This document shows, piece after piece, positions 1 to 24,168 of a stretch of 24,168 bases of DNA (the stretch's first letter is position 1; every line of letters starts with the position of its first letter). The stretch spans positions 1 through 24,168 of IMG/VR virus record IMGVR_UViG_3300010398_000050, one strand, 5' to 3'. Made by a program: the position numbers and the translations under genes. This stretch comes from a virus. Taxonomy: Duplodnaviria; Caudoviricetes. The notes under the pieces are model-generated. The model made no database searches. It had not been told where the DNA came from and saw nothing but the letters and a program-made list of their open reading frames with translations.

Positions 1-1499
1 CGCCCCGACGTTGAAAATGGATTGCGCGGATTTCCTGCCGAGTTGGCGAACGCATCCAGCCACTCCTGATACGACAAGTCGTGCGGGCCTTTCTTCTTCC
101 TGGGATCCTGCGGGCCGTAACGCGGGTCAGGCGGGCCGTAGACCGCATTGGGATTAGGTGGAGGCGGATACCAGCTAGGGCCGGGAGTCTTGAATGTCTC
201 GCGCACGTTGTTGAATGCACCACCCGTCTCCATGTCGCAAATTCCAATCAAGGTCGCCAGGAAGAGATTGTAATCCCACGGCCCATGCCAGTCCTTCGCG
301 GCTTTGATGAAATAATTGCCCCAACTCTCGGGCATCTGAACGTCTGCCTCAAGCTCCTTGCCCAGCCCTGTCGAAACCGTTGCACCTGGAACTGTCGATT
401 GCTTGGCGAGCTTCGGATCCACGGGGATGCGTTGCGAGACGGCAAACTGCTTCTCGCGCAGCCGAACTTCCTGAACGAAGCCATCCGAGTCACATTGAAT
501 TTTCGAGCCGACAACGAAATACTCGCCGGTCAAGCCAAGCTGCGGAATGTTGACCTTGGCAATGCTGTTCTGCCTGATCATGATCCCCGGATCAACAATC
601 GTCACCTTGATTTCAAGACTGCCGACCTTACCTTCGAAAATTTCCTCGTTGGCGGTCTTGGTCGCCTTCTTGGGAGACGTGATGCTGGAGTCGAACATGA
701 TCTTGCGGGATTTCTTGACCCACATCTTCGTGGTCGAGTCGTTCGCCGTCTCCATGAAACCCTGCTCGCCCCGCTGGCCGAAGACCCAGACAGCCGCGTA
801 ACGCCGCTGCATGTTCTTGTTGATTTCAAGCCTCTCCACCGGAATGTAATACTGGCGGATGTGCTGCGGGTCGTTGCTTGCAGGAGTGCCAAAGAAGTAG
901 ACGGGAGACGAATGGTAGTTGAGTGCTCCTGAAATCAGCGTACCCTTCGGGTCGCACCAAAGAAATTGTTTCTCCTTGCGCACGATCCTGTACCAGAAGT
1001 CCCAGTACGACTCCGAGCCGTCCGTGTAGAACGTCTTCTTGCTCTTGTTCGCAGGCGAAAGATCGATGCCGGGGAAATTCAGTGTCTGCGCCTGCGTGGA
1101 GATGACTTGATGCGCCGCCTTCAGTTTGTAGCGGTACGGAGGCGCAGTCGAGTCCACGGCGACTGAACTGAAATCTCGGCCCATGATCTGGATCGATCCA
1201 CCGTCATCGAACGATGCCTCATCCGCGATCCCGTTCATGATGTAGCTGATGCCTTCTCGTCCGACACCGAAAAGTTCCAGGCGAATTTCAGAATCACGCT
1301 GGAACATCTCCAGCATCGAACCGTGTGGATCCGCAACCGAAAGCTGCCAGCTATCCGAATCGTTGTCGAGCGCCGTGTCAACGAAATATGACTCGATTGC
1401 CGTGAGCGTCTTCGGACGGTAGCCGGTGTTGTTCCAGCGAGTCGTGATGATCGCACGAACGTTTGAAATGCTGGGATTACTCGGAACGCTACTTGGCAT
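1..1499 (-). CDS. Baseplate hub (Mu gp44/T4 gp27-like) fused to a putative lytic transglycosylase domain; runs off the left edge
   Basis: Not in the ORF track (no stop in window). My translation from ATG 1499: MPSSVPSNPSISNVRAIITTRWNN...SYFVDTALDNDSDSWQLSV...IQIMGRDFSSVAVDS...TDGSESYWDFWYRIVRKEKQFLWCDPKG...GEYFVVGSK, resembling Mu gp44-type hubs; then YFIKAAKDW...LATLIGICDMETGGAF (SLT-like helix with Glu). Follows the tape measure and LysM genes. Confidence 0.75.
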   Translation of the reverse strand, partial: MPSSVPSNPSISNVRAIITTRWNNTGYRPKTLTAIESYFVDTALDNDSDSWQLSVADPHGSMLEMFQRDSEIRLELFGVGREGISYIMNGIADEASFDDGGSIQIMGRDFSSVAVDSTAPPYRYKLKAAHQVISTQAQTLNFPGIDLSPANKSKKTFYTDGSESYWDFWYRIVRKEKQFLWCDPKGTLISGALNYHSSPVYFFGTPASNDPQHIRQYYIPVERLEINKNMQRRYAAVWVFGQRGEQGFMETANDSTTKMWVKKSRKIMFDSSITSPKKATKTANEEIFEGKVGSLEIKVTIVDPGIMIRQNSIAKVNIPQLGLTGEYFVVGSKIQCDSDGFVQEVRLREKQFAVSQRIPVDPKLAKQSTVPGATVSTGLGKELEADVQMPESWGNYFIKAAKDWHGPWDYNLFLATLIGICDMETGGAFNNVRETFKTPGPSWYPPPPNPNAVYGPPDPRYGPQDPRKKKGPHDLSYQEWLDAFANSAGNPRNPFSTSG

Positions 1500-1680
1500 G
1501 GACTTTGGCTTTCCTTAGTTCGCGTTGTAATTCGATTTGTAGAGCAGCGCTGTCGATCAGTGCGTCGAACTGGGCGTTTCTCCGTTGCTTGTCAGCCCCT
1601 GGATGCCGTTCGCACCACTTCTGAAATTCCACGATGGCTTGTCTATGCCGTGCCCTCACTTTTCCCTTTGCCTCGGCCAC
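1489..1680 (-). CDS. Hypothetical protein, 63 aa
   Basis: Fills the gap between the LysM gene and hub and overlaps the hub start by 11 nt; no recognisable motif. Confidence 0.5.
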   Translation of the reverse strand: MAEAKGKVRARHRQAIVEFQKWCERHPGADKQRRNAQFDALIDSAALQIELQRELRKAKVHAK

Positions 1681-1691
1681 TTGACCCCATT

Positions 1692-2537
1692 TCAGTAAAC
1701 GATCTTCGAACCGACAGGCCAGCGGTGAGTAGGTAGCTCGTAGTTGGCAGGAGTAGACTCTCCAGGCCGTGCCTTGAAAAAAGCGTTCACCCTCTTCTGG
1801 TTGAGCGGCACGAGCCTCGTCCAGAGGTTTGCGTCCTTGTAGACCTTGTACGCGATCTGGCGGAACGTCTGCACGCCCGCCTTGACAGTGAAAACGTGAT
1901 GCGCTTTTCCTTTTGGGATCGTCTTGACAGCCGGGTTGGGATCTGGTGGCAGACCATGCGGATCCTCTACCTGCCCGCCGACGCCGATAATTACAAAGCT
2001 GAGCGTGTAGGCAATCGAATGCGTACGGTCGTCCGGGTCGTGATTGAAATCCCAGCTTTCAGGCAAGACATAGAGCCAGTTGCTGAGCAGCCCCGGCATG
2101 TAGAGCCGCAAGCCGTTGCGCTGATTCGTTGTCAGGATCTGAAGACATGCCTGCATTTTCAGTGCCGACGACGTGCCGGGGAAAATTCCATTCATCGACA
2201 GACGGCCTTCTTCATAATGCGTCGTCTGACCTCTGACGATCTTGCCGCCAATTACATGATGCAGACCGAGTTGTGCCTGACCGGTGCGGCTGAAGCCTTC
2301 GATACCGGCAGGGAAGCCGAACAGAGTCTTGCCGTCCGTCGTCGTGATGTAGCAACGCGGATGACGCATGTTCCCGGCGGTCGCATTGTTCGGGCCATAA
2401 ATCGATCCAGGGCCGATGATGTAGCGAGCCGGATCCATGCCGGTGCCGACATCCCAGACCTGAACGACCTTCGGCTTGTCGTCAAACGCATCCGGGTTCT
2501 GTCCGCCGCCGAGAATTACACTTTGGACTTCCGCCAT
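1692..2537 (-). CDS. Tail tube initiator/baseplate protein with C-terminal LysM-like domain
   Basis: C-terminal HVFTVKAGVQTFRQIAYKVYKDANLWTRLVPLN is LysM/gpX-like; directly downstream of the tape measure, as in myophages. Confidence 0.7.
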   Translation of the reverse strand: MAEVQSVILGGGQNPDAFDDKPKVVQVWDVGTGMDPARYIIGPGSIYGPNNATAGNMRHPRCYITTTDGKTLFGFPAGIEGFSRTGQAQLGLHHVIGGKIVRGQTTHYEEGRLSMNGIFPGTSSALKMQACLQILTTNQRNGLRLYMPGLLSNWLYVLPESWDFNHDPDDRTHSIAYTLSFVIIGVGGQVEDPHGLPPDPNPAVKTIPKGKAHHVFTVKAGVQTFRQIAYKVYKDANLWTRLVPLNQKRVNAFFKARPGESTPANYELPTHRWPVGSKIVY

Positions 2538-2538
2538 T

Positions 2539-4710
2539 TCAGTTGCTCCTCTGGGTCTTCCCTGGTTTGCCGCCCTGGCTTGGATACTTGTTGGCCCACA
2601 TTTTCACTGGAACGTGTACGCGCTTCTGGGTCGTTGTGCCATCCGGATGCTTGAGGGTGATGTTCATCCAAAGCTCGCCACTGACCCCGGCAAACGGGTT
2701 ATTCATGCCCGTCACCGTATTGCCGTTCGTTCCCCAAAGCTGGTTGGCCTTTGCCAGTGAGCGCTGCGATGAAATCAGACGATTCCCTCTCTGCCATGCC
2801 GCGGCTCTACCACCGCCACCCTCGCCTTGACCGGCAGGGTCAGCGTTGTAGAAGTAGTCGAAGATGGTCGCTGCAGTGCCAACAGGCCCAGCAAATTTCG
2901 CAAACTTGGCAAATTTCGCAGCGTGGCCTGTCGCATCAAGCGCGTCCATCGCAATCGCCGTATCCAACTTCCGGTTCCGGAAGAAATTCCCGACTCCTCC
3001 TGGAAAACGTCTGACCTTGCCCAGCAAGCCAAAGAATTTCGAACCGCCTTTTGCTGCAGCTACGTCTTCACCGACTCGCTCTGCATCGCTCGCAGCCTTT
3101 CCCAGCGGAGTTCTACTTCCACCACCGAAATTTCCTCCTCTGATCAACTGATCGACCACGACGACGTAGAGCGGATTCGTAGGCGAAGCGCCGAGAGTTG
3201 CGCCGCCAGCCATCATCGCTTTTGCAGCATTGGCCTCGACTAGTGCATGCCCAAGCCCGCCGCCACCACCGCCGAAGAGCCGGTTGAAAAGCGGCAATTT
3301 CCCTAGAAGTTTTCCTCCTCCGAGCATGCGGCCGACTGTAATTCCACCAATCGCCGCCAAGCCTCCCCAAGCGAGCCGGTGTGTCCACTTGGGATGATTC
3401 TGTGCCCAGTGCTGCGGGCCTGTGACAAGATGGCCCGCGCTCCAATTGAGCACCGGTTCGAACGTCTGCGCAACCTGTAGCGCCATGTTGTTGATCGCAA
3501 TCGACGCCTGCTGCAATTTCGCCCGCTTCTGAAAATTCTTCCAGGCGAGTGCCATGTTGTGCGCGTCATCAACGTTGTTGTTCTGCTCGTTGACCATCAT
3601 CTGCAGATCCTGGTTGAGCGACTGCACATTTCCTCGCTGCCGCAACTGGTGCGCGAGTATGATCGCTGCCCGGATTCCGTGGATACGCGGAATCATCTTG
3701 CGCAGGCGAGTCATCTCTGCGGCCGGAATTCCGGGCAGGTTGCTCTGATCGTCAAGCTGGTCGTCCGGAATTGCTGAAATTGCTCCGATCCTGCCCGTGT
3801 TCGTGATTGTCCGCAGCAATTTCATGGTGGCTGCGTACACACCACGACGCTCCACGAACTGCGGTGTAATTCCGATCCCCGCCAGAGCCTTCGCAGCACC
3901 GCCCGTCGGCTGGGCAACACTCTGTAGCAGGTACGTCAGCCCGCGCATTGCGACGGCCGGAGGAGCGCCTGTACGAACAGCCCCTAGTGTGAGACTCATC
4001 ATCTGCGCCTGGGCCAGACGAGGGCTTACAGAGCGTCCTGGGGCCATCTGGAACATCGACGCCAGTGTCGGGATCTGAGCCGCAATCTCCGGGGCCGCCG
4101 AGACTCCACCCGGAGCGGTCTTGATCAGAGCGAACCACATCCGGTTGAATTCTGAGATGTTCTTGAAATTGTTCTGCCGTCCGAACGCCACATTCAACGT
4201 TGACGCCGCCTTGGTCAGATCCTCGACCGGGGTCTGAGACAATTTCGCTGCCTGGCCGATGTTCTTGATGATGTCCGGAAGCTCCGACTGCTTGACACCC
4301 TGAACAGTCGAAAGGTAGTTGATCGTCGCGTCGTTGATTTCATTGATCGGAGTCAATGAATCAACGGATGCCTGCCGCAGACTGTCGCCCATCTGCTTGA
4401 TCGCGTTGTCACTGAAAATCCCGCCGCCTGCAGGCTCACCGATAGCCTGCATCAGCCCGAGTTGCTGCTGCACGTCTTTCAGTTGCCCGATCATGCGCGT
4501 CAGCCCGAAGATCGCCTGTCCTGCGACTGCATAGCGGATCGTCGTTCCCAGTGCGCGCCACTGGTCGTTCAGCCGGGTGGAGAGCCTCGTCGTGTCGTTG
4601 ATCGAACGGGCAATGTTCCCAAAGCCCTGCGACACCGTGCCCATCTGGGCAATCGCCTGATTGCCACGAGCGCGGAAGGTAGTTGTAATTGTGTTGTTGA
4701 TCGTGCTCAT
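2539..4710 (-). CDS. Tail tape measure protein, 723 aa
   Basis: Ala/Gly-rich helical protein with TP901-type core (GLTYLLQSVAQPTGGAAKALAGIGI), hydrophobic segments, directly after the chaperone pair. Confidence 0.9.
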   Translation of the reverse strand: MSTINNTITTTFRARGNQAIAQMGTVSQGFGNIARSINDTTRLSTRLNDQWRALGTTIRYAVAGQAIFGLTRMIGQLKDVQQQLGLMQAIGEPAGGGIFSDNAIKQMGDSLRQASVDSLTPINEINDATINYLSTVQGVKQSELPDIIKNIGQAAKLSQTPVEDLTKAASTLNVAFGRQNNFKNISEFNRMWFALIKTAPGGVSAAPEIAAQIPTLASMFQMAPGRSVSPRLAQAQMMSLTLGAVRTGAPPAVAMRGLTYLLQSVAQPTGGAAKALAGIGITPQFVERRGVYAATMKLLRTITNTGRIGAISAIPDDQLDDQSNLPGIPAAEMTRLRKMIPRIHGIRAAIILAHQLRQRGNVQSLNQDLQMMVNEQNNNVDDAHNMALAWKNFQKRAKLQQASIAINNMALQVAQTFEPVLNWSAGHLVTGPQHWAQNHPKWTHRLAWGGLAAIGGITVGRMLGGGKLLGKLPLFNRLFGGGGGGLGHALVEANAAKAMMAGGATLGASPTNPLYVVVVDQLIRGGNFGGGSRTPLGKAASDAERVGEDVAAAKGGSKFFGLLGKVRRFPGGVGNFFRNRKLDTAIAMDALDATGHAAKFAKFAKFAGPVGTAATIFDYFYNADPAGQGEGGGGRAAAWQRGNRLISSQRSLAKANQLWGTNGNTVTGMNNPFAGVSGELWMNITLKHPDGTTTQKRVHVPVKMWANKYPSQGGKPGKTQRSN

Positions 4711-5099
4711 ACTTCTACCTCGACTTCGATTTCACCCTCTCCGTCTCCGTTGCTCCCGTTGCTGCTGAAGCTCTTGCTGGGCTTTCTGAAATCCAGATCG
4801 ACGCTGTATCCGGCCTCCTCGACTGACGGGCGGTAGATTTTGCTCTGGATGTCCTCGGACAATTCACTTTCTACGATCACTGGCTCGTTGCAGACTTCGC
4901 AGGTGGTTCGGAGGAGCTTTCCTCGGCACCAGGAGTGGACTCTTGCGAGTCGCTCGTCGTAATCGACGAGTTGGTTGAGATAGACCCAGCAAAGTTGTCC
5001 AGCAGTGGCGAAGGTGTAATCTTTGAAAGGAAGCGTTTGGCTGCGTACCATGCACCCCCAGAGAGTTCGTTCCAGTCCATTGTCTGCAAGGCTTTTTTT
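4707..5099 (-). CDS. -1 frame extension of tail assembly chaperone (gpGT-like T part)
   Basis: The -1 frame is open from the A7 slippery site: KKSLADNGLERTLWGCMVRSQTLPFKDY...HSWC...CEVC...EVEV*; its stop overlaps the tape measure ATG (ATGA). Confidence 0.8.
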   Translation of the reverse strand, partial: KKSLADNGLERTLWGCMVRSQTLPFKDYTFATAGQLCWVYLNQLVDYDERLARVHSWCRGKLLRTTCEVCNEPVIVESELSEDIQSKIYRPSVEEAGYSVDLDFRKPSKSFSSNGSNGDGEGEIEVEVEV

Positions 5100-5533: not shown

Positions 5534-5834
5534 TCCTTTCGGCCATCAGTTCTGTCGCCTCCTGAACCGTCTTCGACATTTCCATTTGCACCGGCATTGC
5601 AATGAATTCCCGGTTGCACGTCAGGCATGTCGCCTTGATGACAATTTCAGCAAGCGGCCCTTGTCCTGCAGATTCTTTGACGCTGACATCTGGGTTCATC
5701 GTGTGGCAGTGCGGACAGACTGGCGGCAACGTCTCGACATTGATGACAGGATCCTGAGCGAGCCGTTCTAGAGCGTCAACGGCCCGCTCAGCGAGTCCCA
5801 GCAGAGCATCTGTCTGAATTTCAAGCTCTGACAT
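5490..5834 (-). CDS. Zinc-ribbon hypothetical protein, about 114 aa
   Basis: CPHC and CLTC pairs; ATG 5834 overlaps the tube stop (TGATG). Confidence 0.7.
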   Translation of the reverse strand: MSELEIQTDALLGLAERAVDALERLAQDPVINVETLPPVCPHCHTMNPDVSVKESAGQGPLAEIVIKATCLTCNREFIAMPVQMEMSKTVQEATELMAERNAQRGFDGRANQGT

Positions 5835-6367: not shown

Positions 6368-6874
6368 CTAGACTGGGATCGTGAGGTTCCGCTGCACGAT
6401 CCCTTCGACATGCGAGCGGTTCAGTCCGACTTGGTATGAAATACGATTCAGGTTCATCCCCTCCTCACGTAACTGCAGAATTTTCAGAACCTTCGCCTTC
6501 TTGATCGGTCGTGGCCTACTTCCCCGTCGTGCAGGATGAGCATCTGCCCATGCGATCATTTCCTTGGCCTTCAACCGCTTGACTCGCAGGTACGGCTCAA
6601 TCTGCTTCAGAAATTCAGAAGCAACTGCACGATTGACCGTGTAAATCTTGTGCAGCGGAGTTCGGTTTCCGTACGACTGACTGACGCGATGCGTCAGCAT
6701 GATCCCATGTTCCGCGCAGAAAGCCTGAATTTCAAACAGCACTTGCTCTTGCGGCTCTGCCTGGCATATCTCCACAAGAACCCGCGCTGTTCGGCCATCC
6801 GGATAGAACCCGATGCAGCCTTCACCGTCGAGGAAACCAGCGATGTATTGCCAGGAAATTTCATTCATGGTCAT
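6368..6874 (-). CDS. Free-standing single-motif LAGLIDADG homing endonuclease with C-terminal HTH-like region, 168 aa
   Basis: WQYIAGFLDGEGCI motif, FLKQIEPYLRVKR motif, C-terminal KILQLREEGMNLNRISYQVGLNRSHVEGIV; ATG overlaps the sheath stop (ATGA). Confidence 0.9.
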   Translation of the reverse strand: MTMNEISWQYIAGFLDGEGCIGFYPDGRTARVLVEICQAEPQEQVLFEIQAFCAEHGIMLTHRVSQSYGNRTPLHKIYTVNRAVASEFLKQIEPYLRVKRLKAKEMIAWADAHPARRGSRPRPIKKAKVLKILQLREEGMNLNRISYQVGLNRSHVEGIVQRNLTIPV

Positions 6875-6891
6875 ACAGGGATTGTTAGATT
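6389..6891 (-). mobile_element. Homing endonuclease insertion carrying a replacement 3' end for the sheath gene
   Basis: Bounded by two synonymous versions of NLTIPV-stop at 6871-6891 and 6368-6388. Confidence 0.7.
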
Positions 6892-8025
6892 CGCCGCGAC
6901 CTTGATCGTGGAAATTCCACGCCGGACGACGCCCGAGTAGCCGACCGTGACTTGCCGGTTGTCCGTCGAGCTTGTTACGTTGACGCTGTAGCCCTGCGTG
7001 CCGTCGGGCTGCGTGATCGGCTGAATCCACTCGCCACGCTCCGCGAGAATTGCAGCGACGCCAGAGCGAATGTGCTCCCGCGTCGATTCCGAATTCGGCT
7101 GACGCAGGTATTCGCTGTCGTAGATGTAATTCCGCACGTCGATGAAAACCTGATCCACGATCACACGGGTGTAGAGCGCGTCGTACGCCCCGTTCGTCGT
7201 GTAGACGGTGCGGAGATGCGTCGTTGCGACTCCACCGGCCACACGGGACGGCTGCAGCGGCGAGACGCCTCCCTGGAGCAAGTCTTCGAAGTCGTCCACG
7301 GCCGTACCGGAAACAACCTTGCGCCTGAAAAGCGGCAGGCCGAAGCTATCGACTTCGATCCCGCTCAGTGACGGAATGACCCACAGGTCGAGGTCATTCG
7401 TCGGATCGGCGTTCTTCGCAATTTCAGCCGCTGCGTATGCGGCTGCAAAGGAACCACCCCGAAGTGTTCCCAGCGAGTCGTAGACGCCGGGGCCGACGAG
7501 CACAAACCGAGTCGCCTGCGGAACCAACTGCGGAGAGCCGCCTGCAATTGCAGTTGCCGCCGTGATCAGGTTCGCCTTCGTCGTTCCCGCTGCCAGACCG
7601 CCGAGTGCGATCTGCTTGTTGTAGAGCAAGTCCGCGTTCGCCGCCGACTGAGCGAGCGCAACGAGGTCAGCCTGCAATTCTGAGCCGGTCAGACGCAGGC
7701 GGATCGTCGGATCCGACTCGAATTTCTCCCAGACTGCTTGCCGCTGGACGAGAGTCGGTGCCGTTCCCTTCGCAGAACAGGCCGCAATTACAGGCCCAGC
7801 CCCGGCCGTGAGTACCGCTGAAATCAGCGATGTCAAAACCGATGCGGGGCCGAATGCGTCGTTCGCCTGATCAACGCGGGTGAACGTTGCCGGTGTTGCA
7901 ATTGCCGCCGTTCCTACCGTGTCCGCCTGACCTTCGATGGCGATAGGCAAGTAGATGTCTGCCGCCGTCTTCGGAATCAGGTTACTTGCGTCGAGGACGC
8001 GAGGATCGAGCAAGGTACTGGACAA
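6871..8025 (-). CDS. Contractile tail sheath protein, compact (384 aa)
   Basis: Sheath C-terminal signatures: EDLLQGGVSPL, LYTRVIVDQVFIDVR...YLRQPNSESTREHIRSGV, VTVGYSGVVRRGISTIKV; GGAGG RBS with TTG start. Confidence 0.88.
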   Translation of the reverse strand: MSSTLLDPRVLDASNLIPKTAADIYLPIAIEGQADTVGTAAIATPATFTRVDQANDAFGPASVLTSLISAVLTAGAGPVIAACSAKGTAPTLVQRQAVWEKFESDPTIRLRLTGSELQADLVALAQSAANADLLYNKQIALGGLAAGTTKANLITAATAIAGGSPQLVPQATRFVLVGPGVYDSLGTLRGGSFAAAYAAAEIAKNADPTNDLDLWVIPSLSGIEVDSFGLPLFRRKVVSGTAVDDFEDLLQGGVSPLQPSRVAGGVATTHLRTVYTTNGAYDALYTRVIVDQVFIDVRNYIYDSEYLRQPNSESTREHIRSGVAAILAERGEWIQPITQPDGTQGYSVNVTSSTDNRQVTVGYSGVVRRGISTIKVAANLTIPV

Positions 8026-8041
8026 ATTTCCTCCTTCCTAC

Positions 8042-8674
8042 CTATCCGAGAACGAACATGTTCGGGGGTTGATCCACAATCGACAGATTGGGATCCTGCT
8101 GAATGTCTTCGATGGTCGGGCCTCCTTCCGGCAGAAGCGGTGTACGACTGAAAATCCGAAGTACGAGCGTGCAATCGACCATCCGGTAGAGCCGGAAGTC
8201 GTTCTGCATGTCCATCACGAACCTGCCGCCGCTGAAGCTCAGAATTTCAAGGTAGCCGTCTCCTCCGTCAGTGGCATCGATCAGCCGTTGCTTCGCTAGC
8301 TGTCCGCCGAAGAGCAGCGTTAGGCTCTGTCGCGCTCTCATTCGCGCTGTAAGCCCTCCCGAGGCGTCGGACGACCAAACCCCCACGTCGAAGTTGATGT
8401 GGACTTCACGGGCCTCCTGCGGGTTCACCGTCTTGGTCACGTCGTCGTAGTTCAGGGCGAAGTAATTCTGGCCCATCCCGACAACCCGGTCATCGATGGC
8501 ATCGACTTCGAAGTGGATCAGTGTCTTGTGCAACGGCATCTTGATTTCAGCGATCTGCGGAGCCGGAAACGCCATCACCACTGAATAGATGCGGGTGTTG
8601 ATGTTTGACTCCACGTAGGATTTCAAACAGCGGTTTGCCGACTCCATCCAATGCTCTGGATCGAAGACTGTCAT
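8042..8674 (-). CDS. Putative tail terminator/sheath stabiliser
   Basis: Last neck gene before the sheath; alpha/beta pattern (INFDVGVWSS...RARQSLTLLF) consistent with this class. Mostly gene order. Confidence 0.55.
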   Translation of the reverse strand: MTVFDPEHWMESANRCLKSYVESNINTRIYSVVMAFPAPQIAEIKMPLHKTLIHFEVDAIDDRVVGMGQNYFALNYDDVTKTVNPQEAREVHINFDVGVWSSDASGGLTARMRARQSLTLLFGGQLAKQRLIDATDGGDGYLEILSFSGGRFVMDMQNDFRLYRMVDCTLVLRIFSRTPLLPEGGPTIEDIQQDPNLSIVDQPPNMFVLG

Positions 8675-8675
8675 T

Positions 8676-9374
8676 TCAGTTCGCCCTCGTCACTTTCTGA
8701 GTTTGACCAAATTGCATCGACGGCCCTCCAAACCTCACCAGTGCGCCGCGCAGATTTCCAGTCACGGCTGCACCGGCACCGTGGACTGTCTGTGAAAATC
8801 CCATCCCGCCGCCGATGTACTTCGGATCGGCGTAGATGCTGACCCAGATCCGATCCCATGCCTCGGTGCGCATCATGAAATCCATCGTCTTCTTCAACGA
8901 GAGCTTCCTGATCGGCCTGCGCACACGATGCAGGTACGGGCTAATCCCGAATTCGATGTAATACGCCTCACGCGAGTCGTTGTAAAGCTGCCAGACCGCA
9001 GGGCCGAGCGACTTGATCTTCCAGCCCAGGTAGTACCGGCCTGTAATTCTGCGCACCGGGATTTGCCATGCAGCGGGACTGGACTGATACTGCGGGCCTT
9101 GCTTGGAGAATCCACCCAGCCCGGTTGTCTGGTGGCCGGTGAGTTGGTGAAATTCTGTTCTTGCTGCGCCGGGATCGTAGGGGCCGAATGACATCTCCCT
9201 GGCAAAGCCCTGGTTGAGCAGTGCCATGTGAAATGTCAACTCGTTCATCGCTGCGCGCAGGCGAGAAGGCACGTAGACCTCTGCCCATTCGATTGCCTCC
9301 TCCAGCGCGCGAAACGTCTCTTCCGTCGGCTCCAGGAAAGCTCTGCTGCTGTGGTATCTGGTGAATCTCGCCAT
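8676..9374 (-). CDS. Putative tail completion/neck protein (HK97 gp10-like)
   Basis: PVRRITGRY...LYNDSREAYYIEFG resembles the PVxTGxL...NxxxYAxyvEfG pattern; gene order. Confidence 0.6.
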   Translation of the reverse strand: MARFTRYHSSRAFLEPTEETFRALEEAIEWAEVYVPSRLRAAMNELTFHMALLNQGFAREMSFGPYDPGAARTEFHQLTGHQTTGLGGFSKQGPQYQSSPAAWQIPVRRITGRYYLGWKIKSLGPAVWQLYNDSREAYYIEFGISPYLHRVRRPIRKLSLKKTMDFMMRTEAWDRIWVSIYADPKYIGGGMGFSQTVHGAGAAVTGNLRGALVRFGGPSMQFGQTQKVTRAN

Positions 9375-9378
9375 GAAA

Positions 9379-9888
9379 TTACGGCCCCAGTGGCTCGATT
9401 GCCATCAGACGCAATCCTGTCTCCCAGTGATGCCGGGGATTGCCGTCTGCCGGATCGGGGATCAGGTTCGCGTTGACAACGAAGAATTTCCTGCTGTTGT
9501 AGATGATGTACTCGTCGCCGCTCTGCGACCAATCGTAGAAGTCCAGTGAAATTCCGCCCCAGGACTCCGGAAAAATTCCAAGATGGTCGTCCGCTTCGAT
9601 TACGCCGTAGATCGCTTCGATCATCTCGGACTGCAGGCGAGTTGCACGAGTCGATTGGATCGGCTGCACGAACGCCTTCACGAGCGCATGCACTTCGACA
9701 CCTGGAAGCAGTGCGCGCTCATTACAGAGCGGCGCAGCAGGATTGGCGACGTGCCAGTCCATGTCCCGCGAGCCTTCAGGAGTCATGCAAGGACAGGGTT
9801 GCATCTGATCCACGTAGTCACGGTGGTACGTGACATCCGAGCCGTGCTCGCTGACCAAGCTGACGAAGTGATCAACCGTTCCGGGCAT
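9379..9888 (-). CDS. Putative head closure/stopper protein
   Basis: Follows the adaptor; GSDVTYHR...PCPC...VKAFVQP...GDEYIIYNSRKFFVV...HHWETGLR is stopper-like. Confidence 0.6.
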   Translation of the reverse strand: MPGTVDHFVSLVSEHGSDVTYHRDYVDQMQPCPCMTPEGSRDMDWHVANPAAPLCNERALLPGVEVHALVKAFVQPIQSTRATRLQSEMIEAIYGVIEADDHLGIFPESWGGISLDFYDWSQSGDEYIIYNSRKFFVVNANLIPDPADGNPRHHWETGLRLMAIEPLGP

Positions 9889-16588: not shown

Positions 16589-17791
16589 TTACGTGGACGA
16601 CGTTGCCAGCGTGATCTTCTGGACAGAGTTGGGCAGATCCAGGTACAGCCCGCGACGTGTGCGAGCTACCTGCTGTCCTTCGACCAGACGCGAGATGTCG
16701 GCAGGGCCGATGTCCACGCGTAGGTCGTGATGCACGAGTTCCTTCATGCGCAACGCCGGGGCGATGAAATAACACGTTCCCGCAGTCACACCGGGATAGG
16801 TGTAATTCTTGACGCCGTTCGTCACCGTCGCGCCGTTGTAGTAGATGATCCCCTCGACCGGCACGCGCCGCAGCGGGTTGCCCTGCGAGTCCACGACCGG
16901 GGTGAGCAGTGCGTCTTCGATCTGGAAGCGGTCTGCCTCGTTCGCCAGGATCCAGGTAGGGATGCGCTGCGGGACTGCGAGCGCCGCCGTGCGGTACGCC
17001 TGCTGAAATCCGACGAGCGTGTTGGCGACGAGCGAGCCGTTGCCGGTCACTGCCGCCGTGGTGTTGCCACCGCCGTAGGCGTAGGCGATGATCGGAGACA
17101 GGTGGTTGTGGTTCAGAAGGTAATTGTACGCCCTTCCGAACGCACGGGAGTTCATCCCGATTTCATACGAACGGTCGAACTCGATCATGTCCTCCGTCCA
17201 CTCGAAACCACCCGCGTACGTCGTCACGGGCACGAACGTCGGTGCTCCCTGCTTGGCGAGCGTTCCGAAAATTACCTCGCCCGCTTCCATCTTCTCCATG
17301 AAGACGATGTTCGCGTCGAAGAGCACGTCGCCGCCGATCTGTACGGATCCACCGGGGAACGGGCCGTTGATCCGCTCGTACAGCGGCTGGTAGAGCAGCG
17401 GGACTTCTGCGAGTCCCACGTCGATGTCGAGCCGCACCTTCTGCAGCAAATCCATCGCACCCTGCGAGGTCGTGATCATCTCGCCCACGCTCTGAAGCAA
17501 GTCGATCACGAGTGCGTCCCGACGAAATTCCGGGACGAGACGTGCCTGCATCTCGCTCGCTGAAATCATCTGGACGGTGGCGATTTCACCGGCCAGCACT
17601 GCGGGCCGGTTCCATTGCCTGTGCGTCAGATCGCTGTCGTTGTTGTCCGGGCTTGCGATGCCCATCGACGCACCGACAGGCGGGCCGAACGTGCCGTCGT
17701 GGCCGATGGTGAACCGTCCGCCCCGCATGCGCTTTGTGATGGATTCCATCGTCGGCGCTTCCGGAACGAGGACGGAGCTTGACCTACTCAT
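16589..17791 (-). CDS. Major capsid protein (HK97 fold presumed), 400 aa with N-terminal extension
   Basis: AAGGAGGG RBS before ATG 17791; PLLYQPLY, EAGEVIFG, YAGGFEWTEDMIEFD motifs; follows protease and cement genes. Confidence 0.85.
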   Translation of the reverse strand: MSRSSSVLVPEAPTMESITKRMRGGRFTIGHDGTFGPPVGASMGIASPDNNDSDLTHRQWNRPAVLAGEIATVQMISASEMQARLVPEFRRDALVIDLLQSVGEMITTSQGAMDLLQKVRLDIDVGLAEVPLLYQPLYERINGPFPGGSVQIGGDVLFDANIVFMEKMEAGEVIFGTLAKQGAPTFVPVTTYAGGFEWTEDMIEFDRSYEIGMNSRAFGRAYNYLLNHNHLSPIIAYAYGGGNTTAAVTGNGSLVANTLVGFQQAYRTAALAVPQRIPTWILANEADRFQIEDALLTPVVDSQGNPLRRVPVEGIIYYNGATVTNGVKNYTYPGVTAGTCYFIAPALRMKELVHHDLRVDIGPADISRLVEGQQVARTRRGLYLDLPNSVQKITLATSST

Positions 17792-18194: not shown

Positions 18195-18782
18195 TTAGGC
18201 GGGTGCCTCTTCCTCGTCCTGCTGGTCGATGTAATCCTGCACATCGGCCTTGGTGATGTTGCCGTCCTTCCCGGTGCCCTCGACCTGGGCCAGATCGACT
18301 CCCTCGGCATCGGCAAGCTCGCGTGCTGCGTCGGATGCCGTCACGTCCTCCGCAGTGGTCTGTGGGGCCACAGGAGCGCTCTGGACGGTCGCCTCGCCCT
18401 TGAGCGTCCCGTCGTACCCCTCACCGTAATCCTCGCTCAGAGCGGCCGGGTGGCCCTCGGGGAGATTCTCGGCAGCGAGCGGGTGAGACGAGAGCGAAAC
18501 GAGACGGCCGACCGATGTAATTGCTTCCGGCGAGCCGTATGCGGGCGGGCCGACGATGGTCGGACGCATCTCCATGCCCTGCTCCTCCTCCGGGACGTAG
18601 GGGTTCATTGCCTGCGACGGAGCGGCGAAGACGACGCCTTCGTCCTCCGCGTCGAAGTCGAAGTGCTCACCGGCAGCGACAACCTCGTCGTTCGGCTGCT
18701 GCTCGAAATCGTCGGACACGATTTCAGCTTCGACCCGCTCCTCGGGAGGAGCCGTGCTGATCTTCTTGCGGGGTGGTGCCAT
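18195..18782 (-). CDS. Acidic, probably disordered protein with C-terminal E3-binding (PSBD) domain
   Basis: ASDAARELADAEGVDLAQVEGTGKDGNITKADVQDYI matches the 2-oxoacid dehydrogenase E2 PSBD consensus; AGGAGG RBS. Confidence 0.85.
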   Translation of the reverse strand: MAPPRKKISTAPPEERVEAEIVSDDFEQQPNDEVVAAGEHFDFDAEDEGVVFAAPSQAMNPYVPEEEQGMEMRPTIVGPPAYGSPEAITSVGRLVSLSSHPLAAENLPEGHPAALSEDYGEGYDGTLKGEATVQSAPVAPQTTAEDVTASDAARELADAEGVDLAQVEGTGKDGNITKADVQDYIDQQDEEEAPA

Positions 18783-18797
18783 GAAATTCCTCCTCTC

Positions 18798-19970
18798 CTA
18801 CGCCGAGCGGACGCGGATCGAAGATGTGGTCAGTCCGGCCTTCAACTCGCGCTGCTGGCCGCGACCTTGCTGGGAGGACGACGGCGGCGACGGAGGAGTG
18901 CCCTCCATCTCTGAAATCGTCTCCTTGATGTCCTCGTTGGAGTTGATGACCTCGTTCACCATCTCCGTGACGAACTTCTCGTCCTTGTCGCTGTCGCCGG
19001 TGAGAGTGAAATCCTTGTCGCGGATTTCACCGACGATCACGCGCTTGACGAGTGCGCGATCCTTCTCGTCTCCGCCCGTGAGCCTCTTGCTGAGCACGGA
19101 GTCGAGCACGGAATCGCGCAGTGACTTCCCGGCCGCACGGAGTTGTGAAATCGTGGCCTGCACTACAGCCAGCGGCTCCGTGTCTTCCTTGAGGCCGAGC
19201 AGCTTGCGCAGATCGGGGATCAGATCCAGCGTCGGCTTGACCGTCGCCTCTGCCGTCTCCATTTCACCGATCTTCGTGTCGAGCGGGGCACGCACGTCGT
19301 CCTCGATAGCCTTGACCACGGCGGGATTGTGCGCGCGAAGCTCGTTTACCGACAGTGCTGCAATTTCCTTCGGATCCACTGCTTTCCCTCCTTCCTCCAT
19401 CTCGCTTGTGAGCGCAACGAGACGCGCACTCATCCCGGCCGCACGAGGCCGAGCCAAGTCGATTGACTCCAGATGAAATTCCTTGATCCGGACTCCCTTC
19501 TCGTGCATCTCCTGTGCGACCTTGCCACGCCAGGAGACTGTCTTCGCCAGACCGCGACGTGCGTAGTCCCTCGCCTTCGTGCCGGGAAGGAAATACGCCT
19601 TCGCAGCCAGCCTTGCCCCGCTTGCCGCCGAAAGCAGCTTGGCCCCCACCCACTGAAGCTGAATTTCAGGGAATTCGTAGGGGTCGTCGTCAGGCCGGAT
19701 GTGACCGAGGTATCCGACAATCGGCTCCGTGCTCGCGGCTGAGTTGATTTCAGTCGCAACGCCACCGAAGAGTTCCGGCCCCCAGAAGCGATTCGACTTC
19801 GACCAGCCGCTTTCGATTACGTACGTGCCGAAGATCGGACTCGTGTCATCACCGACCACTTCGCTGAGCAGCCCCGCTGAAATCGGGACTGCCCCACCCG
19901 ATACCGAGGCCATCTCCGAGACGAAGACAACCTCGACAGGTTCGAAGATTTCAGTGATGAAATCCGACAT
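18798..19970 (-). CDS. Prohead protease/scaffold fusion, 390 aa
   Basis: N-terminal IESGWSKSNRFW...GYLGH...VSWRG...SIDLARP protease-like domain, charged helical C-terminal scaffold; between portal and capsid. Confidence 0.75.
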   Translation of the reverse strand: MSDFITEIFEPVEVVFVSEMASVSGGAVPISAGLLSEVVGDDTSPIFGTYVIESGWSKSNRFWGPELFGGVATEINSAASTEPIVGYLGHIRPDDDPYEFPEIQLQWVGAKLLSAASGARLAAKAYFLPGTKARDYARRGLAKTVSWRGKVAQEMHEKGVRIKEFHLESIDLARPRAAGMSARLVALTSEMEEGGKAVDPKEIAALSVNELRAHNPAVVKAIEDDVRAPLDTKIGEMETAEATVKPTLDLIPDLRKLLGLKEDTEPLAVVQATISQLRAAGKSLRDSVLDSVLSKRLTGGDEKDRALVKRVIVGEIRDKDFTLTGDSDKDEKFVTEMVNEVINSNEDIKETISEMEGTPPSPPSSSQQGRGQQRELKAGLTTSSIRVRSA

Positions 19971-19972
19971 GA

Positions 19973-20287
19973 CTACGTGTACTGCGCCCGGCGCAGCTTC
20001 TTGCCCTGGTTCTGGTTGAAGAGCGTGCGCGGGATCACGTTCTGATGTCCACGGGACGCCTTACCCGGAACGCTCATCGTCTTGCGTGTCGCGGCGACGG
20101 AGACTTCCCTGACCGCGCCGTTGCCCTTGGACGGGTCGTAGAGCACGTTCGGGTTGTTCGTGAACTGGTTCGCAACATCTGAAAATGTAGCGACCGTGAC
20201 TCCCCGGTTCGCTGAAATCAGGTTGTACGGATCCCGGACGTGCAGCCGCTTGACGCCCGTCCTCTTGGTCTGTCTGACTGGTGCCAT
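19973..20287 (-). CDS. Small basic protein, 104 aa
   Basis: TGATG coupling upstream; stop 2 nt before the protease ATG. Confidence 0.7.
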   Translation of the reverse strand: MAPVRQTKRTGVKRLHVRDPYNLISANRGVTVATFSDVANQFTNNPNVLYDPSKGNGAVREVSVAATRKTMSVPGKASRGHQNVIPRTLFNQNQGKKLRRAQYT

Positions 20288-20496
20288 CAGAGATTTCCTT
20301 TACTCTTGATCGTCGTCGCCTGGATCGTGGCCCGTGCTGCCTCACGCTCCGAGGCGTACGCCTGCAGGACTGCCGGTGCTTGTGCATCGCCAATCGTGTC
20401 GTCGCGGATCCCGTGCTGAATTCCAGGAGCCGCCTTCGGATTTCCTGGGCCACCGTAGCCGGTGCCCAGTTGCTTCACTCTCAAGATCCTTACCAC
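20287..20496 (-). CDS. Small protein, 69 aa
   Basis: AGGAGG RBS before GTG; tightly packed. Confidence 0.65.
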   Translation of the reverse strand: MVRILRVKQLGTGYGGPGNPKAAPGIQHGIRDDTIGDAQAPAVLQAYASEREAARATIQATTIKSKGNL

Positions 20497-20499
20497 GAA

Positions 20500-20688
20500 T
20501 TACCTCCTTCCTCTTCCCCCGACCGGGGTCTGAATGAATTTGAACCTTGATCCGGCAGGGAAGCTGGCCGTTGCCGGATTGACACCGCCGCGTGCGAGGT
20601 TCTTCATGTGCCGGATCTGCGGCATCCGCATCACCTTCAACGGCCCAGTGCGTCCTGCGTAGCCGAGCGTTGGATTTCCGATTGCCAT
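20500..20688 (-). CDS. Small Arg/Gly-rich protein, 62 aa, no Asp or Glu
   Basis: GGAGGAG RBS; tightly packed. Confidence 0.7.
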   Translation of the reverse strand: MAIGNPTLGYAGRTGPLKVMRMPQIRHMKNLARGGVNPATASFPAGSRFKFIQTPVGGRGRR

Positions 20689-20696
20689 CGCTCCTC

Positions 20697-20831
20697 CTAG
20701 TAGCGGACGAGCCGCAGGTATTGGGTGTATCCGGCCGGGAGCAGCGGCAGGATTCGCTTGCCCGATTTCCTGTCACGCAGTGATTGGTTCGACTGCGTGA
20801 TGATCGGTGTTACTGAAATTGCCCCCTTCAT
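20697..20831 (-). CDS. Small basic protein, 44 aa
   Basis: Below cutoff: MKGAISVTPIITQSNQSLRDRKSGKRILPLLPAGYTQYLRLVRY*; ATGA overlap with the upstream stop; fills the gap. Confidence 0.55.
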   Translation of the reverse strand: MKGAISVTPIITQSNQSLRDRKSGKRILPLLPAGYTQYLRLVRY

Positions 20832-21070
20832 CTCTTCCGCCTCTTTCTCCTCTGCTTGGCGAGGGTCTTTGCCAGTGCAGCCTGCCGCTTGGTGCGTGTG
20901 CTGGCCCTGGAATTCTTGGCGAGCACCTTGTTCGCGTAGGCACTGGTGCTCATGCCTGCGCGCTTCGCCTTCGCACTGAAGGCACCCGGTCGCTTGATCG
21001 CGCCTTTGATCCAGTTCTTGTTGCCACTGGATTTCCTTCTTCTTGAGGAGCTTGCACGCTTGCGCGGCAT
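20828..21070 (-). CDS. Highly basic protein, 80 aa, no Asp or Glu
   Basis: GAGGAGG RBS; KNWIKGAIKRPGAF...RQAALAKTL resembles hypothetical proteins I recall from uncultured phages (unverified). Confidence 0.8.
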   Translation of the reverse strand: MPRKRASSSRRRKSSGNKNWIKGAIKRPGAFSAKAKRAGMSTSAYANKVLAKNSRASTRTKRQAALAKTLAKQRRKRRKR

Positions 21071-21071
21071 T

Positions 21072-21224
21072 TCACTTGCGCCTCCTCTTCGGCTTCGCCC
21101 GCCTCATCGCCGTCTGCGCTACAACCTTCGGATTTCTCTGCCCGAGCTTGACCCTGCGCGCACTCTTCTTCACCCGCAATTTCCTTCTACGGCCGGTGCG
21201 CGGAACGTGTGGCCTCGCCCTCAC
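21072..21224 (-). CDS. Protamine-like protein, 50 aa
   Basis: Below cutoff: MRARPHVPRTGRRRKLRVKKSARRVKLGQRNPKVVAQTAMRRAKPKRRRK*; GGAGG 6 nt before a GTG overlapping the portal stop (GTGA). Confidence 0.7.
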   Translation of the reverse strand: MRARPHVPRTGRRRKLRVKKSARRVKLGQRNPKVVAQTAMRRAKPKRRRK

Positions 21225-22825
21225 TGCTGACCTCCCTGAGCTACCGGAGTGCCGCCGCCCTGGTGGTAGTAGTAGTTGTATTTGCTTCCTTGCCCACCGC
21301 CCTGCTGGTTGGGGCCAGGAGCCGGATTCAACTGTGCCTGCTGCTGCGCCTGCCTCTGCATGTCCAACTGCGCCTGCTTGCCCTCGTCAACCGACGATTT
21401 CATCACAGGCAGGAACTGCTTCAACATCCGCCGGTACGTCTCGTCCGAGATTTCACCGCGCTGGGCTGCGACTTCCAGGCCCATCACGAGTTGCTGGAAC
21501 GCCTGGTAGAAGACAACCTCGTCGTCCACCCGGATGATCTGCCATGAAATTTCCGGCCTGACTGGGATCAGGCCGTTCATGACAAGCACCATCTTGCAAA
21601 GCTGCTGGATCGGATCCGTGAAATTGATGCGCTTACCTTCGATCTTCTTCAGCAGCGGCACCGTCTGTGCGTTGCGGTCGGAGTTGGCAGAGCCTGAATC
21701 GACTCGCATGAACGCCCACTCCGGAGTCTGGCTTGCGATGCAGATGCAGTCGATCAGGAATTCCAGCAGGACGTGGGTATCCCCGAGCACACTCTTGGCC
21801 TCCAGAAACGAGATGTCCTCGTCGGTCTGAACAAAGAGAATCTCCCGGCCCCGCCAGGAAATTTCACCGTCCTGCTTGATCTGTCCCGTCTCCGTGTCCA
21901 CTGCCTCGGGGAAGTTGTTCATGATGAATGGAGCCACATCCGTCAATTTCATCATGACCTTCGGAGTCGAGTGGTAGCCGTGAGCCTGCAGTCCCTGGGT
22001 GAGCGCGTCATGGAAAGCCTGGATGAACGGGATTACAGTTTCCAGATCGCTCTGCCCGCCCTTCAGTGTGGAGTCGTACTCGTTGTAGACCTCAACCAGC
22101 GGCACGAAGCCGTAGCGATTGACTGCTTCCATGTCGGTCAGCCACTCGCTGGTCGTGTTGTCGAAGAACTTGAAATCGTCGCGGGTGATGAATTCCAGTA
22201 CCTCGTGCTCCTCAACAATCGGATCCCGGCCCTGGGCTATGTCGCCCTCGTCCTTGATAAAGAGCATCCGGTGGTGAATTACAGCCCGCTGGATGATCCA
22301 CTTGTTCTCCGGATGCCGTTCGATCTGAACGAGTTCGGGCGGGAACATCTCCAATGCGCAGTGGTCGCTCTCTTCGATTGTCATCAACGGGTCGAAGATG
22401 TCCGGTCTGCGCAGGCGAACGATCACCTTGGAATCCCGCATCGAGTCCCTGAGCATCTGCTTGATTTCATTTGCCCAGTATGTGCGAATGCACTCGTTGA
22501 GGAAATCAGACGTGGCCTCGTTGTCCGCCGAGATGACCGGCATCCCTATGAAATTCACGGGGATGTCGATGATCGGCTTGGCAAAGCCTGCTCCCAACCC
22601 GTTGTCTCCGGAATTCCTGTACAGCGCACGCAGCGCCTCGTAGTTGACGATGGAGTTCTCGCCCATCGGCCGCTTCGTCGTCCAGAAGCGCAAACCGAAA
22701 TTCGGTAGGCCGAGGAAGCGGAGGGTGCTCGTGCTGCTCCAGGGAATCAGAGCGCGGGTCATATCGACCCACGCGCCCGAGACGCTGTAATACATCTCGC
22801 TCAGCTTATTCAGAACTTTGCCCAC
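21221..22825 (-). CDS. Portal protein (SPP1 gp6-like), 534 aa
   Basis: FAKPIIDIPVNFIGMP, NRYGFVPLVEVYN...GQSDLETVIPFIQAFH, SQTPEWAF motifs; size and position after the terminase. Confidence 0.9.
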   Translation of the reverse strand: MGKVLNKLSEMYYSVSGAWVDMTRALIPWSSTSTLRFLGLPNFGLRFWTTKRPMGENSIVNYEALRALYRNSGDNGLGAGFAKPIIDIPVNFIGMPVISADNEATSDFLNECIRTYWANEIKQMLRDSMRDSKVIVRLRRPDIFDPLMTIEESDHCALEMFPPELVQIERHPENKWIIQRAVIHHRMLFIKDEGDIAQGRDPIVEEHEVLEFITRDDFKFFDNTTSEWLTDMEAVNRYGFVPLVEVYNEYDSTLKGGQSDLETVIPFIQAFHDALTQGLQAHGYHSTPKVMMKLTDVAPFIMNNFPEAVDTETGQIKQDGEISWRGREILFVQTDEDISFLEAKSVLGDTHVLLEFLIDCICIASQTPEWAFMRVDSGSANSDRNAQTVPLLKKIEGKRINFTDPIQQLCKMVLVMNGLIPVRPEISWQIIRVDDEVVFYQAFQQLVMGLEVAAQRGEISDETYRRMLKQFLPVMKSSVDEGKQAQLDMQRQAQQQAQLNPAPGPNQQGGGQGSKYNYYYHQGGGTPVAQGGQQ

Positions 22826-23381
22826 TGAGCATCCCTTCCAGTTCTTCGATCAACTGCGCGGCCTTCTCCTGTACCTCGACCGGAGCTTCGCGCAATTTCT
22901 CCAGCATTCCGCCGTCCTTGACTGTAATTACTTCCTCTTCGACACGTTCCTGCCGAGAAATCTTGATCACGCCGCCGCGATCCAGCACAGATTCCGCAGC
23001 TTTGATTCGCATGCCGTCGTCTTCCGTCGTCCGCATGACATCGACCAAGACCATCACGGCTTCGATCATGAAATCCTGCAGAAGCTCCAGCGCGGCAGCA
23101 GGAAGCTTCTTTCTGAGAACGGCGATTTCCTCGTTGATCCGGGGGAGAGCAAGAATCTCATTGACTTGACCCAATGAAATCCCGATGACCTTGCTCATCT
23201 GCACCCGCGAGTAGTTGGCGAGCTTGAGCACGACGACCATCTGCTCGACGTGCGGAACCTCTGCTGGCAGCAATTTCAGTCGCTTCGCTGTGTTCAGCTT
23301 GTACTGCCGCCGGATCCTGTCCACCTGGCTCTTCTTCGCTATCGCCCTGCGGACGGGTGTGGACTGTCGTCTAGCGGGCAT
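22806..23381 (-). CDS. HTH protein, terminase small subunit-like, 191 aa
   Basis: HTH-like YSRVQMSKVIGISLGQVNEIL, then AVMVLVDVM...RIKAAESVLDRGG typical of TerS oligomerisation helices. Confidence 0.6.
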   Translation of the reverse strand: MPARRQSTPVRRAIAKKSQVDRIRRQYKLNTAKRLKLLPAEVPHVEQMVVVLKLANYSRVQMSKVIGISLGQVNEILALPRINEEIAVLRKKLPAAALELLQDFMIEAVMVLVDVMRTTEDDGMRIKAAESVLDRGGVIKISRQERVEEEVITVKDGGMLEKLREAPVEVQEKAAQLIEELEGMLSGQSSE

Positions 23382-24168
23382 TGACCATGCTCCTGTTCAT
23401 CGCTTGTGAAATTCCAGCAGGAATACTCAGCGTAGGACGCTTCGTAGCAGCGACGGTTGCAAACATCGCCGCGTGGTGCCAGTGGTCTGCGTTGGAATTC
23501 TTCTTCCAGCGCCCCACGAGATTTCCTCTCGTGTTCTCCTCCTCCATCCTGACCATCTGCGTAAGCTGGTAGTACATGCCGTTGAAGCCCTTGCGCGGCA
23601 TCTGCTCGCCCAAGTCACGCGCATCCGGGGGCAGAATTACAGCCCCGTTCAGCATGTCTTGGATCAGTGTGTCGAGAGCCATCGTCTTGTCGATGTTCAC
23701 CCGGCCCGCCTCTTTCGTCTTGAGCGGGAAGAAATTTGCCATTTCGGAGGCTTGCTCACGCTCGTCGGAGAAGCCGATGCGGAGCTTGCCGTGGTATTTC
23801 ATTGCAAGCTCGTGCGATTTCGTCTTCTCCGGGTGTGCATCGATGATTCCCGTCCAGGATGAAAGGGTCGAAAGGAACTTGTCCAGGTCGTTCCAGTTCC
23901 TGAACAATTTCAGATTCCAGAGCATCTTTCGGCCCTGCCGGTCGAAATGCCAGCACCAGACATGAAGCAGCGTGCCCACGTCGATTCCGATTGCCAAGTA
24001 GGAATTCGGAATGCCGCCCATGTGGTAGCCACTAACACGGCACTTGTCCAACAGTTCTGCTGAAATCTTGTCTCCGGGCGCTGCGTACGGCATCCCCATG
24101 TTCTGGTTCCAGAATGCCTTCAATTTCCTTATGTCGCGCTGCCCGAGGAAGTAGTCGCGGACGATTTC
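23371..24168 (-). CDS. terL: Terminase large subunit, C-terminal nuclease domain (GpA-like); starts beyond the right edge
   Basis: FWNQNMGMPY, AIGIDVG, IIDAHP and DHWHHA RNase H-fold motifs; frame is open to the window edge. Confidence 0.9.
   Translation of the reverse strand, partial: EIVRDYFLGQRDIRKLKAFWNQNMGMPYAAPGDKISAELLDKCRVSGYHMGGIPNSYLAIGIDVGTLLHVWCWHFDRQGRKMLWNLKLFRNWNDLDKFLSTLSSWTGIIDAHPEKTKSHELAMKYHGKLRIGFSDEREQASEMANFFPLKTKEAGRVNIDKTMALDTLIQDMLNGAVILPPDARDLGEQMPRKGFNGMYYQLTQMVRMEEENTRGNLVGRWKKNSNADHWHHAAMFATVAATKRPTLSIPAGISQAMNRSMVNAR

Follow-up and report, generated by a model that had tools for sequence, protein, structure and literature searches.

The IMG/VR virus record IMGVR_UViG_3300010398_000050 (Caudoviricetes), which forms in its entirety the window of 24,168 nt analysed here (GC content 58.1%), is filled on both strands with copies of the hexamer TGAAAT, and it raises the question of what kind of signal is laid over its genes and which protein reads it. 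Exact counting on the + strand gave 63 TGAAAT and 43 ATTTCA, including all the coordinates named by the original prediction. Base composition predicts 2.4 and 3.2 copies, respectively, so that the excess is 19-fold, in agreement with the 15-20-fold enrichment claimed; an order-2 Markov model predicts 10.8 copies of both words together. Across all 60 permutations of these six letters the median count is 1; the runner-up hexamers, GAAATT (90) and AAATTG (31), both overlap the motif. Other hexamers made of these letters are not enriched. The word is real, selected and family-wide.

Of the consensus first proposed, cTGAAATY, the core was retained and the 5' c, which is weak (43/106), was dropped, TGWAATY being the better form. 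Its sites in the window comprise 49 TGAAATT, 45 TGAAATC, 25 TGTAATT and 8 TGTAATC, and single-base substitution tables showed that positions 1 and 3 tolerate other letters weakly. The 127 sites, 81 on the + strand and 46 on the - strand, extend from 269 to 24067 with a mean gap of 189 bp and a largest gap of 601 bp; they are under-dispersed and occupy about 3.7% of the window (127 x 7 bp). TGWAATY and the dialect words of its relatives are asymmetric and non-palindromic, and the flanks of the motif contain no second half-site and no information four bases beyond AATT.

The selection acting on the word was separated from that acting on the proteins by use of a hand-picked set of 32 minus-strand open reading frames (ORFs), from which a doubtful overlapping ORF at 4707-5051 was excluded. 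On the coding strand, TGAAAT was observed 38 times against a mean of 5.8 (maximum 14) in 500 within-gene synonymous shuffles, and ATTTCA 52 times against 8.4 (maximum 16). For TGWAATY in coding DNA the counts were 45 + 70 against a shuffle mean of 5.3 + 10.1, and none of the 500 shuffles came close. The enrichment thus outlasts synonymous shuffling, as it does the shuffling of codon order. The encoded proteins permit the word at 192 positions in the window, 115 of which are occupied; these are the sites, out of 127, that lie fully within coding DNA, 45 of them in sense. As anticipated, the copies fall in differing reading frames, all three being used (Ile-Ser 29, x-Glu-Ile/Met 28, Asp/Asn/Tyr-Phe-x 17), and most intergenic spacers are occupied, about 15 of 20 gene junctions, read by eye, holding a copy.

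Comparison of orthologues led to the same result. Synonymous positions within the word showed 319 changes, against 553 expected from codon-matched controls, and the excess of retention was present in 19 of 19 locus pairs, which share loci and hence are not independent. Together with the shuffles and the hexamer controls, this retention supports the second code under DNA-level selection that had been postulated. The individual positions turn over: of about 60 window sites, only 10-15 recur at the matching place in the related genomes G001-G004 and none in G005 and G009. The conserved quantity is the density of the word, not its position. Moreover, the word bends the protein sequence: in TGWAATY phages Glu-Ile is over-used 1.6-2.0-fold and Ile-Ser 1.3-1.7-fold, whereas G005 over-uses neither of these but Ala-Lys. 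Ten of 31 start codons in the window overlap a site, in the form AATTTC-ATG (9369..9380 on the - strand, and alike at 9888, 11210, 17791 and 18782), AATTTCA-GTG (6235) or TGAA-ATG (2537, 8674 and 21070). A role at start codons was rejected on the numbers of near-start sites, namely 5 against 9 expected in G001, 17 against 11 in G002, 11 against 12 in G003, 14 against 11 in G004 and 16 against 13 in G005, and the overlap is treated as a cheap placement of the word.

The spacing of the sites provides information on the mode of reading. The coefficient of variation of the gaps in the window is 0.68, compared with 0.99 for random placement (0/5000) and 0.92 for sites confined to synonymously possible positions (0/1000); similar under-dispersion was seen in G002-G005, not in G001. 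In 11 pooled sequences, pairs 8-35 bp apart occur at 0.23-0.53 of expectation, with recovery by 50-75 bp, and it makes no difference to the depletion whether the two sites have the same, a convergent or a divergent orientation (opposite-orientation pairs at 8-35 bp, 0.25-0.53 of expectation; same-orientation pairs at 8-15 bp, 17 against 74 expected). G001, G006 and G008 deviate from this pattern. The dip is not seen with ordinary words, although control words and motif overlap when the short window is taken by itself. No helical period was seen, the range 8-13 bp included, and no strand switch occurs along six genomes, the TG-form lying on the mRNA strand in 39-53% of cases (six sequences). 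Helical phasing or intrinsic bending was rejected, there being no period and no A-tract in the TGCCAAG dialect. Since the exclusion zone is blind to orientation, the word behaves as a double-stranded-DNA signal, and a zone of about 50 bp fits a protein bound to double-stranded DNA. We infer that the reader is indifferent to orientation, takes one word per binding and profits little when another word lies within about 50 bp. Orientation-blind spacing without a period or strand switch speaks against primase sites, polar signals of the Chi type and dimer operators. Inverted pairs had been regarded as a feature, which they are not, close pairs being depleted in every orientation. Of the two pairs cited, that at 19947..19964, GATTTCA and TGAAATC around gtga, is genuine and is the closest pair (11 bp), a non-recurring exception to the spacing, and that at 12466-12479, GATTTCTGAAATC, consists of one full site plus a core only.

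The window is the structural module of an uncultured family of tailed soil phages of about 70 kb, nearly all of which have the word throughout the genome. The sequencing runs listed as containing it are soil metagenomes, one of which may be its source, with no RNA run among them, and the nearest cultured capsids are 30-43% identical. A capsid search gave 49 viral loci, near-duplicates included and five of them belonging to G001-G005; TGWAATY-type words are among the top words in 39 (2.0-5.7 per kb), nine have TGACAA or TGCCAA words in their place and L033 alone has none. A wider search added 29 scored loci, of which eight outgroup loci (33-37% identity) are without the word, four (L166, L167, L168 and L172) have little or none of it and all others carry it. 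The word excess is 1.9-14.5 per kb in ten long records, and near-complete genomes hold about 280-490 copies (94 in the 46-kb G006), so that the family has one copy every 150-200 bases, both orientations counted; in the five genomes plotted, early regions are no different from late ones in this respect. A quick capsid tree places TGAAAT(T/C) in a number of deep branches and groups the TGACAA and TGCCAAG forms within a single supported clade, to which G007, G008 and two word-poor loci also belong. The dialects along the tree, TGAAATT, TGAAAAC, TGACAAA and TGCCAAG, have the common core TG..A. No paper on the family or the word was found among titles and abstract openings in a library with limited coverage of subscription journals, and no capsid relatives were found in GTDB. 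The loci L167, L168, L172 and L033, members of the family by capsid with a GC content of 41-48% and little or no enrichment, would be natural negative controls if complete genomes were found.

Our tentative preference, which falls somewhat short of being probable, is that TGWAATY may be the docking site of a phage-encoded coat protein on the double-stranded genome, most likely a protein resembling linker histone H1. Linker histone H1 and the bacterial H1-like proteins (Pfam HC2) are built of a small folded domain and tails rich in Lys, Arg, Ala and Pro. The candidate has a like architecture, a small folded domain, putatively three-helical and specific to the family, between long, basic Lys/Arg/Ala/Pro-rich tails. 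Its gene, which the relatives carry, lies outside the window, and its presence in this phage, of which the 24-kb fragment does not contain it, is inferred from relatives. The promoter of the gene, TTGAC-N16-18-TANNNT, is the only near-consensus promoter kept in 11/11 genomes. HC2 was matched by 6 of 51 homologues (best E 6.2e-6), which likely reflects the low-complexity tails, and the central domain gave no significant Pfam match (best E 0.008). A search for this domain in 14 records, 13 of them fragments and the complete G014 alone informative, gave no match and was run without a positive control.

According to this proposal, the H1-like gene would be strongly transcribed after entry by the host RNA polymerase from the TTGAC-N16-18-TANNNT promoter. 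The three-helix domain would take hold of a single word as its unit of binding, as is proposed because there are no paired or phased sites, and the two long Lys/Arg tails might cover some 20-25 bp on either side, so that a nearby second word would add little and would not be maintained. The outcome would be a loosely spaced, sequence-anchored coat, which could mark, compact or shield the phage DNA and spare that of the host, and as the third helix changed, the word would be pulled along with it, from TGAAATT by way of TGACAAA to TGCCAAG. It counts against this proposal that the third helix follows the dialect only as closely as common ancestry would lead one to expect, and the H1-like protein remains a candidate reader only; to our knowledge, H1-type proteins do not read words genome-wide. 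Autoregulation of the H1-like gene was rejected: to the eye its promoter seemed rich in motifs, but the motif density there is, in 10 of 11 genomes, no more than average for an upstream region, and near the top only in G007. A link at residue level between Lys/Arg after RT and a C-ending word is contradicted by G008.

Among known systems the phage word is most like the DNA uptake sequence (DUS) dialects and HIP1, and it lacks defining features of each. DUS is described as a short non-palindromic word with hundreds to thousands of copies within genes, phylogenetic dialects and a conserved core, occupying 1-2.5% of the sequence (PMC3630211). The phage word is likewise hyper-abundant, intragenic and non-palindromic, with dialects along the phylogeny and a conserved core, at a higher share of the sequence. 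However, DUS serves transformation of the bacterial chromosome, is read by ComP and is frequently found as inverted pairs at terminators (PMC3630211), whereas the phage word has 7 bp, is phage-borne and is depleted in inverted pairs. HIP1 is described as over-represented, conserved within reading frames and non-randomly spaced, with a proposed role in chromosome structure and no known reader (PMC5861425), and the phage word is similarly conserved within ORFs beyond codon-matched controls. HIP1, in contrast, is an 8-bp palindrome recognised by a host methylase and has a periodicity of 10-90 kb (PMC5861425); the phage word is asymmetric, has a spacing rule of about 50 bp and comes without a phage methylase in three families searched in 12 records. 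A polarity like that of Chi or of stoperators, the other two systems named earlier, was not supported, both orientations being used. The stoperators of mycobacteriophages are sites of 13 bp, a few dozen in number, oriented with transcription near gene junctions of temperate phages and read by one phage protein, whereas the phage word has 7 bp, is about tenfold more numerous, is unoriented and lies to about 90% inside genes. Chi in lambdoid phages is selected, enriched, polar (20 vs 3) and clustered near one end in tens of copies, is read by the host and occurs in phages without recombination genes (PMC12315714). The two have in common that a short word is under selection and enriched in the genomes of phages; the phage word differs in being two-way, flat along the genomes and present in phages with RecA.

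Of 40 testable 6-bp palindromes, 15 are absent from the window, including CGATCG, GCCGGC, GACGTC, CACGTG and CCCGGG; 17-25 are absent in nine of 11 relatives, 9/40 in G010 and 2/49 in G002, which shows no purge. TTAA occurs twice in the window and not at all in G004, G005 and G011. The purge suggests that the phage DNA is exposed, largely unmodified and under restriction pressure. AATT, the core of the window's word, has 157 copies in the window and none in the 72,088 bp of G005, against 88 expected; it is absent also from L038, L045 and L095, rare in L039 and present in G010, L040, L041 and L042. AATT-cutting enzymes exist, and the dialect shift may have allowed escape from such an enzyme or have been driven by it, either direction being possible. 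The fuller picture, in which a linker-histone-like protein with its own helix-turn-helix-like reader forms a viral chromatin anchored by sequence on some 300-500 copies of the word per genome, reader and word co-evolving as dialects at the price of altered amino acids and the TGCCAAG shift letting one lineage erase AATT completely, plausibly in escape from an AATT-cutting host enzyme, is possible but rather doubtful.

Other readers have to be weighed against the H1-like protein. The two kinds proposed earlier fit poorly: the recognition helix of the TerS-like protein with a helix-turn-helix (HTH) varies widely among phages with the same word, and the basic micro-proteins of 80, 62 and 69 amino acids (aa) were found in 16, 11 and 3 of 55 sequence sets, many of them fragments. 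Candidates that fit better are encoded beyond the window, among the early genes. When 132 mainly non-structural proteins of G003 and G005 were scanned against Pfam and PHROG, matches were obtained for replication proteins (DnaE, DnaB, primase), for RecA, a resolvase and a Cas4-like nuclease, and for an SF2 helicase, HIRAN, HU and a MerR-like HTH protein. An HU/IHF-like reader was rejected, since the HU of G010 resembles that of TGWAATY phages despite a TGMCAAG word and the flanks are without a second half-site. A gene-by-gene correlation with motif distance in seven matched genomes did not single out any gene. Between the SF2 helicase and MerR-like genes of G003 is encoded a conserved 170-aa protein (L060:5016-5528), without a library match and resembling Mu Gam/Gp157 by eye only.

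It is unlikely, though not far-fetched, that the word is read by the small winged-helix protein of MerR type encoded two genes upstream of the H1-like gene, with its helix reading TG and a C-terminal Gly-Arg-Pro (GRP) arm reading the A/T-rich half in the minor groove, by AT-hook chemistry. The protein is present in all 11 genomes; in G003 it matches HTH_17 (E 1.5e-4) and MerR (E 8e-4), both below curated cut-offs. GRP occurs in 29 of 33 distinct sequences. The two TGCCAAG genomes, G005 and G010, are without it, but so are two TGWAATY-type loci, L116 and L127, and since G005 and G010 share dialect and H1-like subtype, their loss is likely a single event. The helix start RDPSR, moreover, occurs with TGAAATT (G003), TGAAAAK (G007) and TGCCAAG (G005). 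The related fold of BldC reads AATT through its wing (PMC5859096), but MerR-like proteins of this type, BldC and D29 Gp36, are described as binding phased head-to-tail repeats at promoters (PMC5859096, PMC12266134), whereas the phage word is solitary, with no such repeats about one helical turn apart. The gene has no strong promoter of its own (0/10), and a protein of 82 aa poorly accounts for a reach of 50 bp.

Just as unlikely is a reader of host origin, a nucleoid, partition or defence-related protein, with dialects following host switches. No phage gene covaries with the word better than ancestry, and host-read words do exist in phages, Chi being an example (PMC12315714). Yet along the capsid tree one dialect passes gradually into the next, as would be expected if a phage reader co-evolved with the word, and in the sole bacterial bin with a family contig no enrichment was found in 84 kb of other contigs (about 4.5 Mb in total), a bin that may not be the host. 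This bin belongs to the Acidobacteria. An Rpf-like transglycosylase (PF06737; L068:17923-18156 in G005, with homologues in G002-G004) hints at an actinobacterial host.

Less likely again is a distributed packaging mark, sampled by TerS or another head protein so that phage DNA and not that of the host is packaged or condensed. The TerS HTH helix of the TGWAATY group is unlike that of the TGMCAA group, but its variability among phages with the same word, noted above, is high. In 5 of 10 genomes the kilobase richest in sites is situated 2.1-6.4 kb upstream of terL, in the other 5 elsewhere, and as the dense stretch is largely free of ORFs, relaxed coding constraint explains the 2-3-fold rise. 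Known TerS sites are local arrays, which also counts against such a mark. The largely ORF-free stretch itself (19200-19700 in L141 of G008, 24500-25000 in G002, 7800-8300 in G004 and 53000-53500 in G001) holds up to 17 sites per 500 bp, with some 9-bp-offset inverted pairs in G008, and may hold the genome ends or the origin. A family of small basic proteins is encoded just upstream of terL (L059:10322-10516 in G003, L062:10175-10718 in G004), duplicated in G002 and G004.

A replication or recombination signal, that is a primase site, a helicase-loading site or a Chi-like stop for the Cas4-like exonuclease acting with RecA, appears improbable. The family encodes the proteins required, DnaE, DnaB, primase, RecA, Cas4-like nuclease and resolvase, and the best correlates of motif distance include DnaB (0.91), primase (0.86) and a likely SSB (0.85); structural genes correlate as highly (0.88 and 0.86), seven genomes being too few to separate them. 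Strand-specific signals should be spaced on one strand only, but opposite-orientation pairs are equally depleted, and the six genomes show no strand switch. That the word is a modification target or a by-product of biased repair or gene conversion, without a binding role, is very improbable: HIP1 in cyanobacteria is reported to contain methyltransferase sites, and drive could likewise raise the apparent retention, but the word is non-palindromic, neutral creation predicts random or clustered spacing where exclusion is observed, and, against the phage methylation self mark suggested earlier, none of 12 records (7 at least 90% complete) carries a PF01555, PF00145 or PF02086 methyltransferase, with positive controls, nor did the scans of the 132 G003 and G005 proteins find any, though host or other modifiers may act.

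The genes assigned in the window all lie on the - strand. The C-terminal part of the terminase large subunit (23371..24168; phrog_675, E 1.7e-22; PF20454 weak) is cut by the contig end. It is followed by the likely small subunit with its HTH (22806..23381), assigned by position and by weak matches to solved small terminases (E 0.08-0.76), whose G005 orthologue matches TerS PHROGs, by the portal protein (21221..22825; phrog_64, E 5.9e-18) and by five small proteins of 104, 69, 62, 80 and 50 aa (19973..21224), several very basic and patchy in relatives, the 80-aa one matching phrog_20603. The major capsid protein (16589..17791; PF25209, E 2.3e-8) was the query for relatives. Between the scaffold and capsid genes, an acidic protein (18195-18782) contains an E3-binding domain (PF02817, E 1.3e-11) and has homologues in most relatives. 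A tail sheath-like protein (6871..8025; phrog_10244, E 4.6e-5), the tape measure and baseplate hub genes (3..4710; PF10145 weak, phrog_177) and a homing-endonuclease-like gene (6368..6868; phrog_5046), which itself carries sites at 6728 and 6857, complete the list; the tail is presumably contractile. Elsewhere in the family, an opposite-strand pair of AAA_5 ATPase and DUF7192 genes (L059:16162-18467 in G003, with matches in G001, G002 and G004) is present in the four complete TGWAATY genomes and was not found in the other six records searched. Roughly where these have the pair, G005 has an opposite-strand ORF of 1048 aa (L067:6386-9532) without a Pfam, PHROG or PADLOC match.

The reader of HIP1 has been sought for decades. 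The phage word is denser than words of bacterial chromosomes such as DUS and HIP1; its dialects are graded, and its exclusion zone of 50 bp can be measured. Genomes of 70 kb offer only a handful of possible readers, and the protein subtypes set against the words are built-in specificity controls; what reads such words, and why, is thus made tractable by a small binding test of three to four protein subtypes with three to four words. Should the reader prove to be the H1-like protein, these phages would possess a chromatin protein targeted by sequence, with natural variants of its domain reading different 7-mers.

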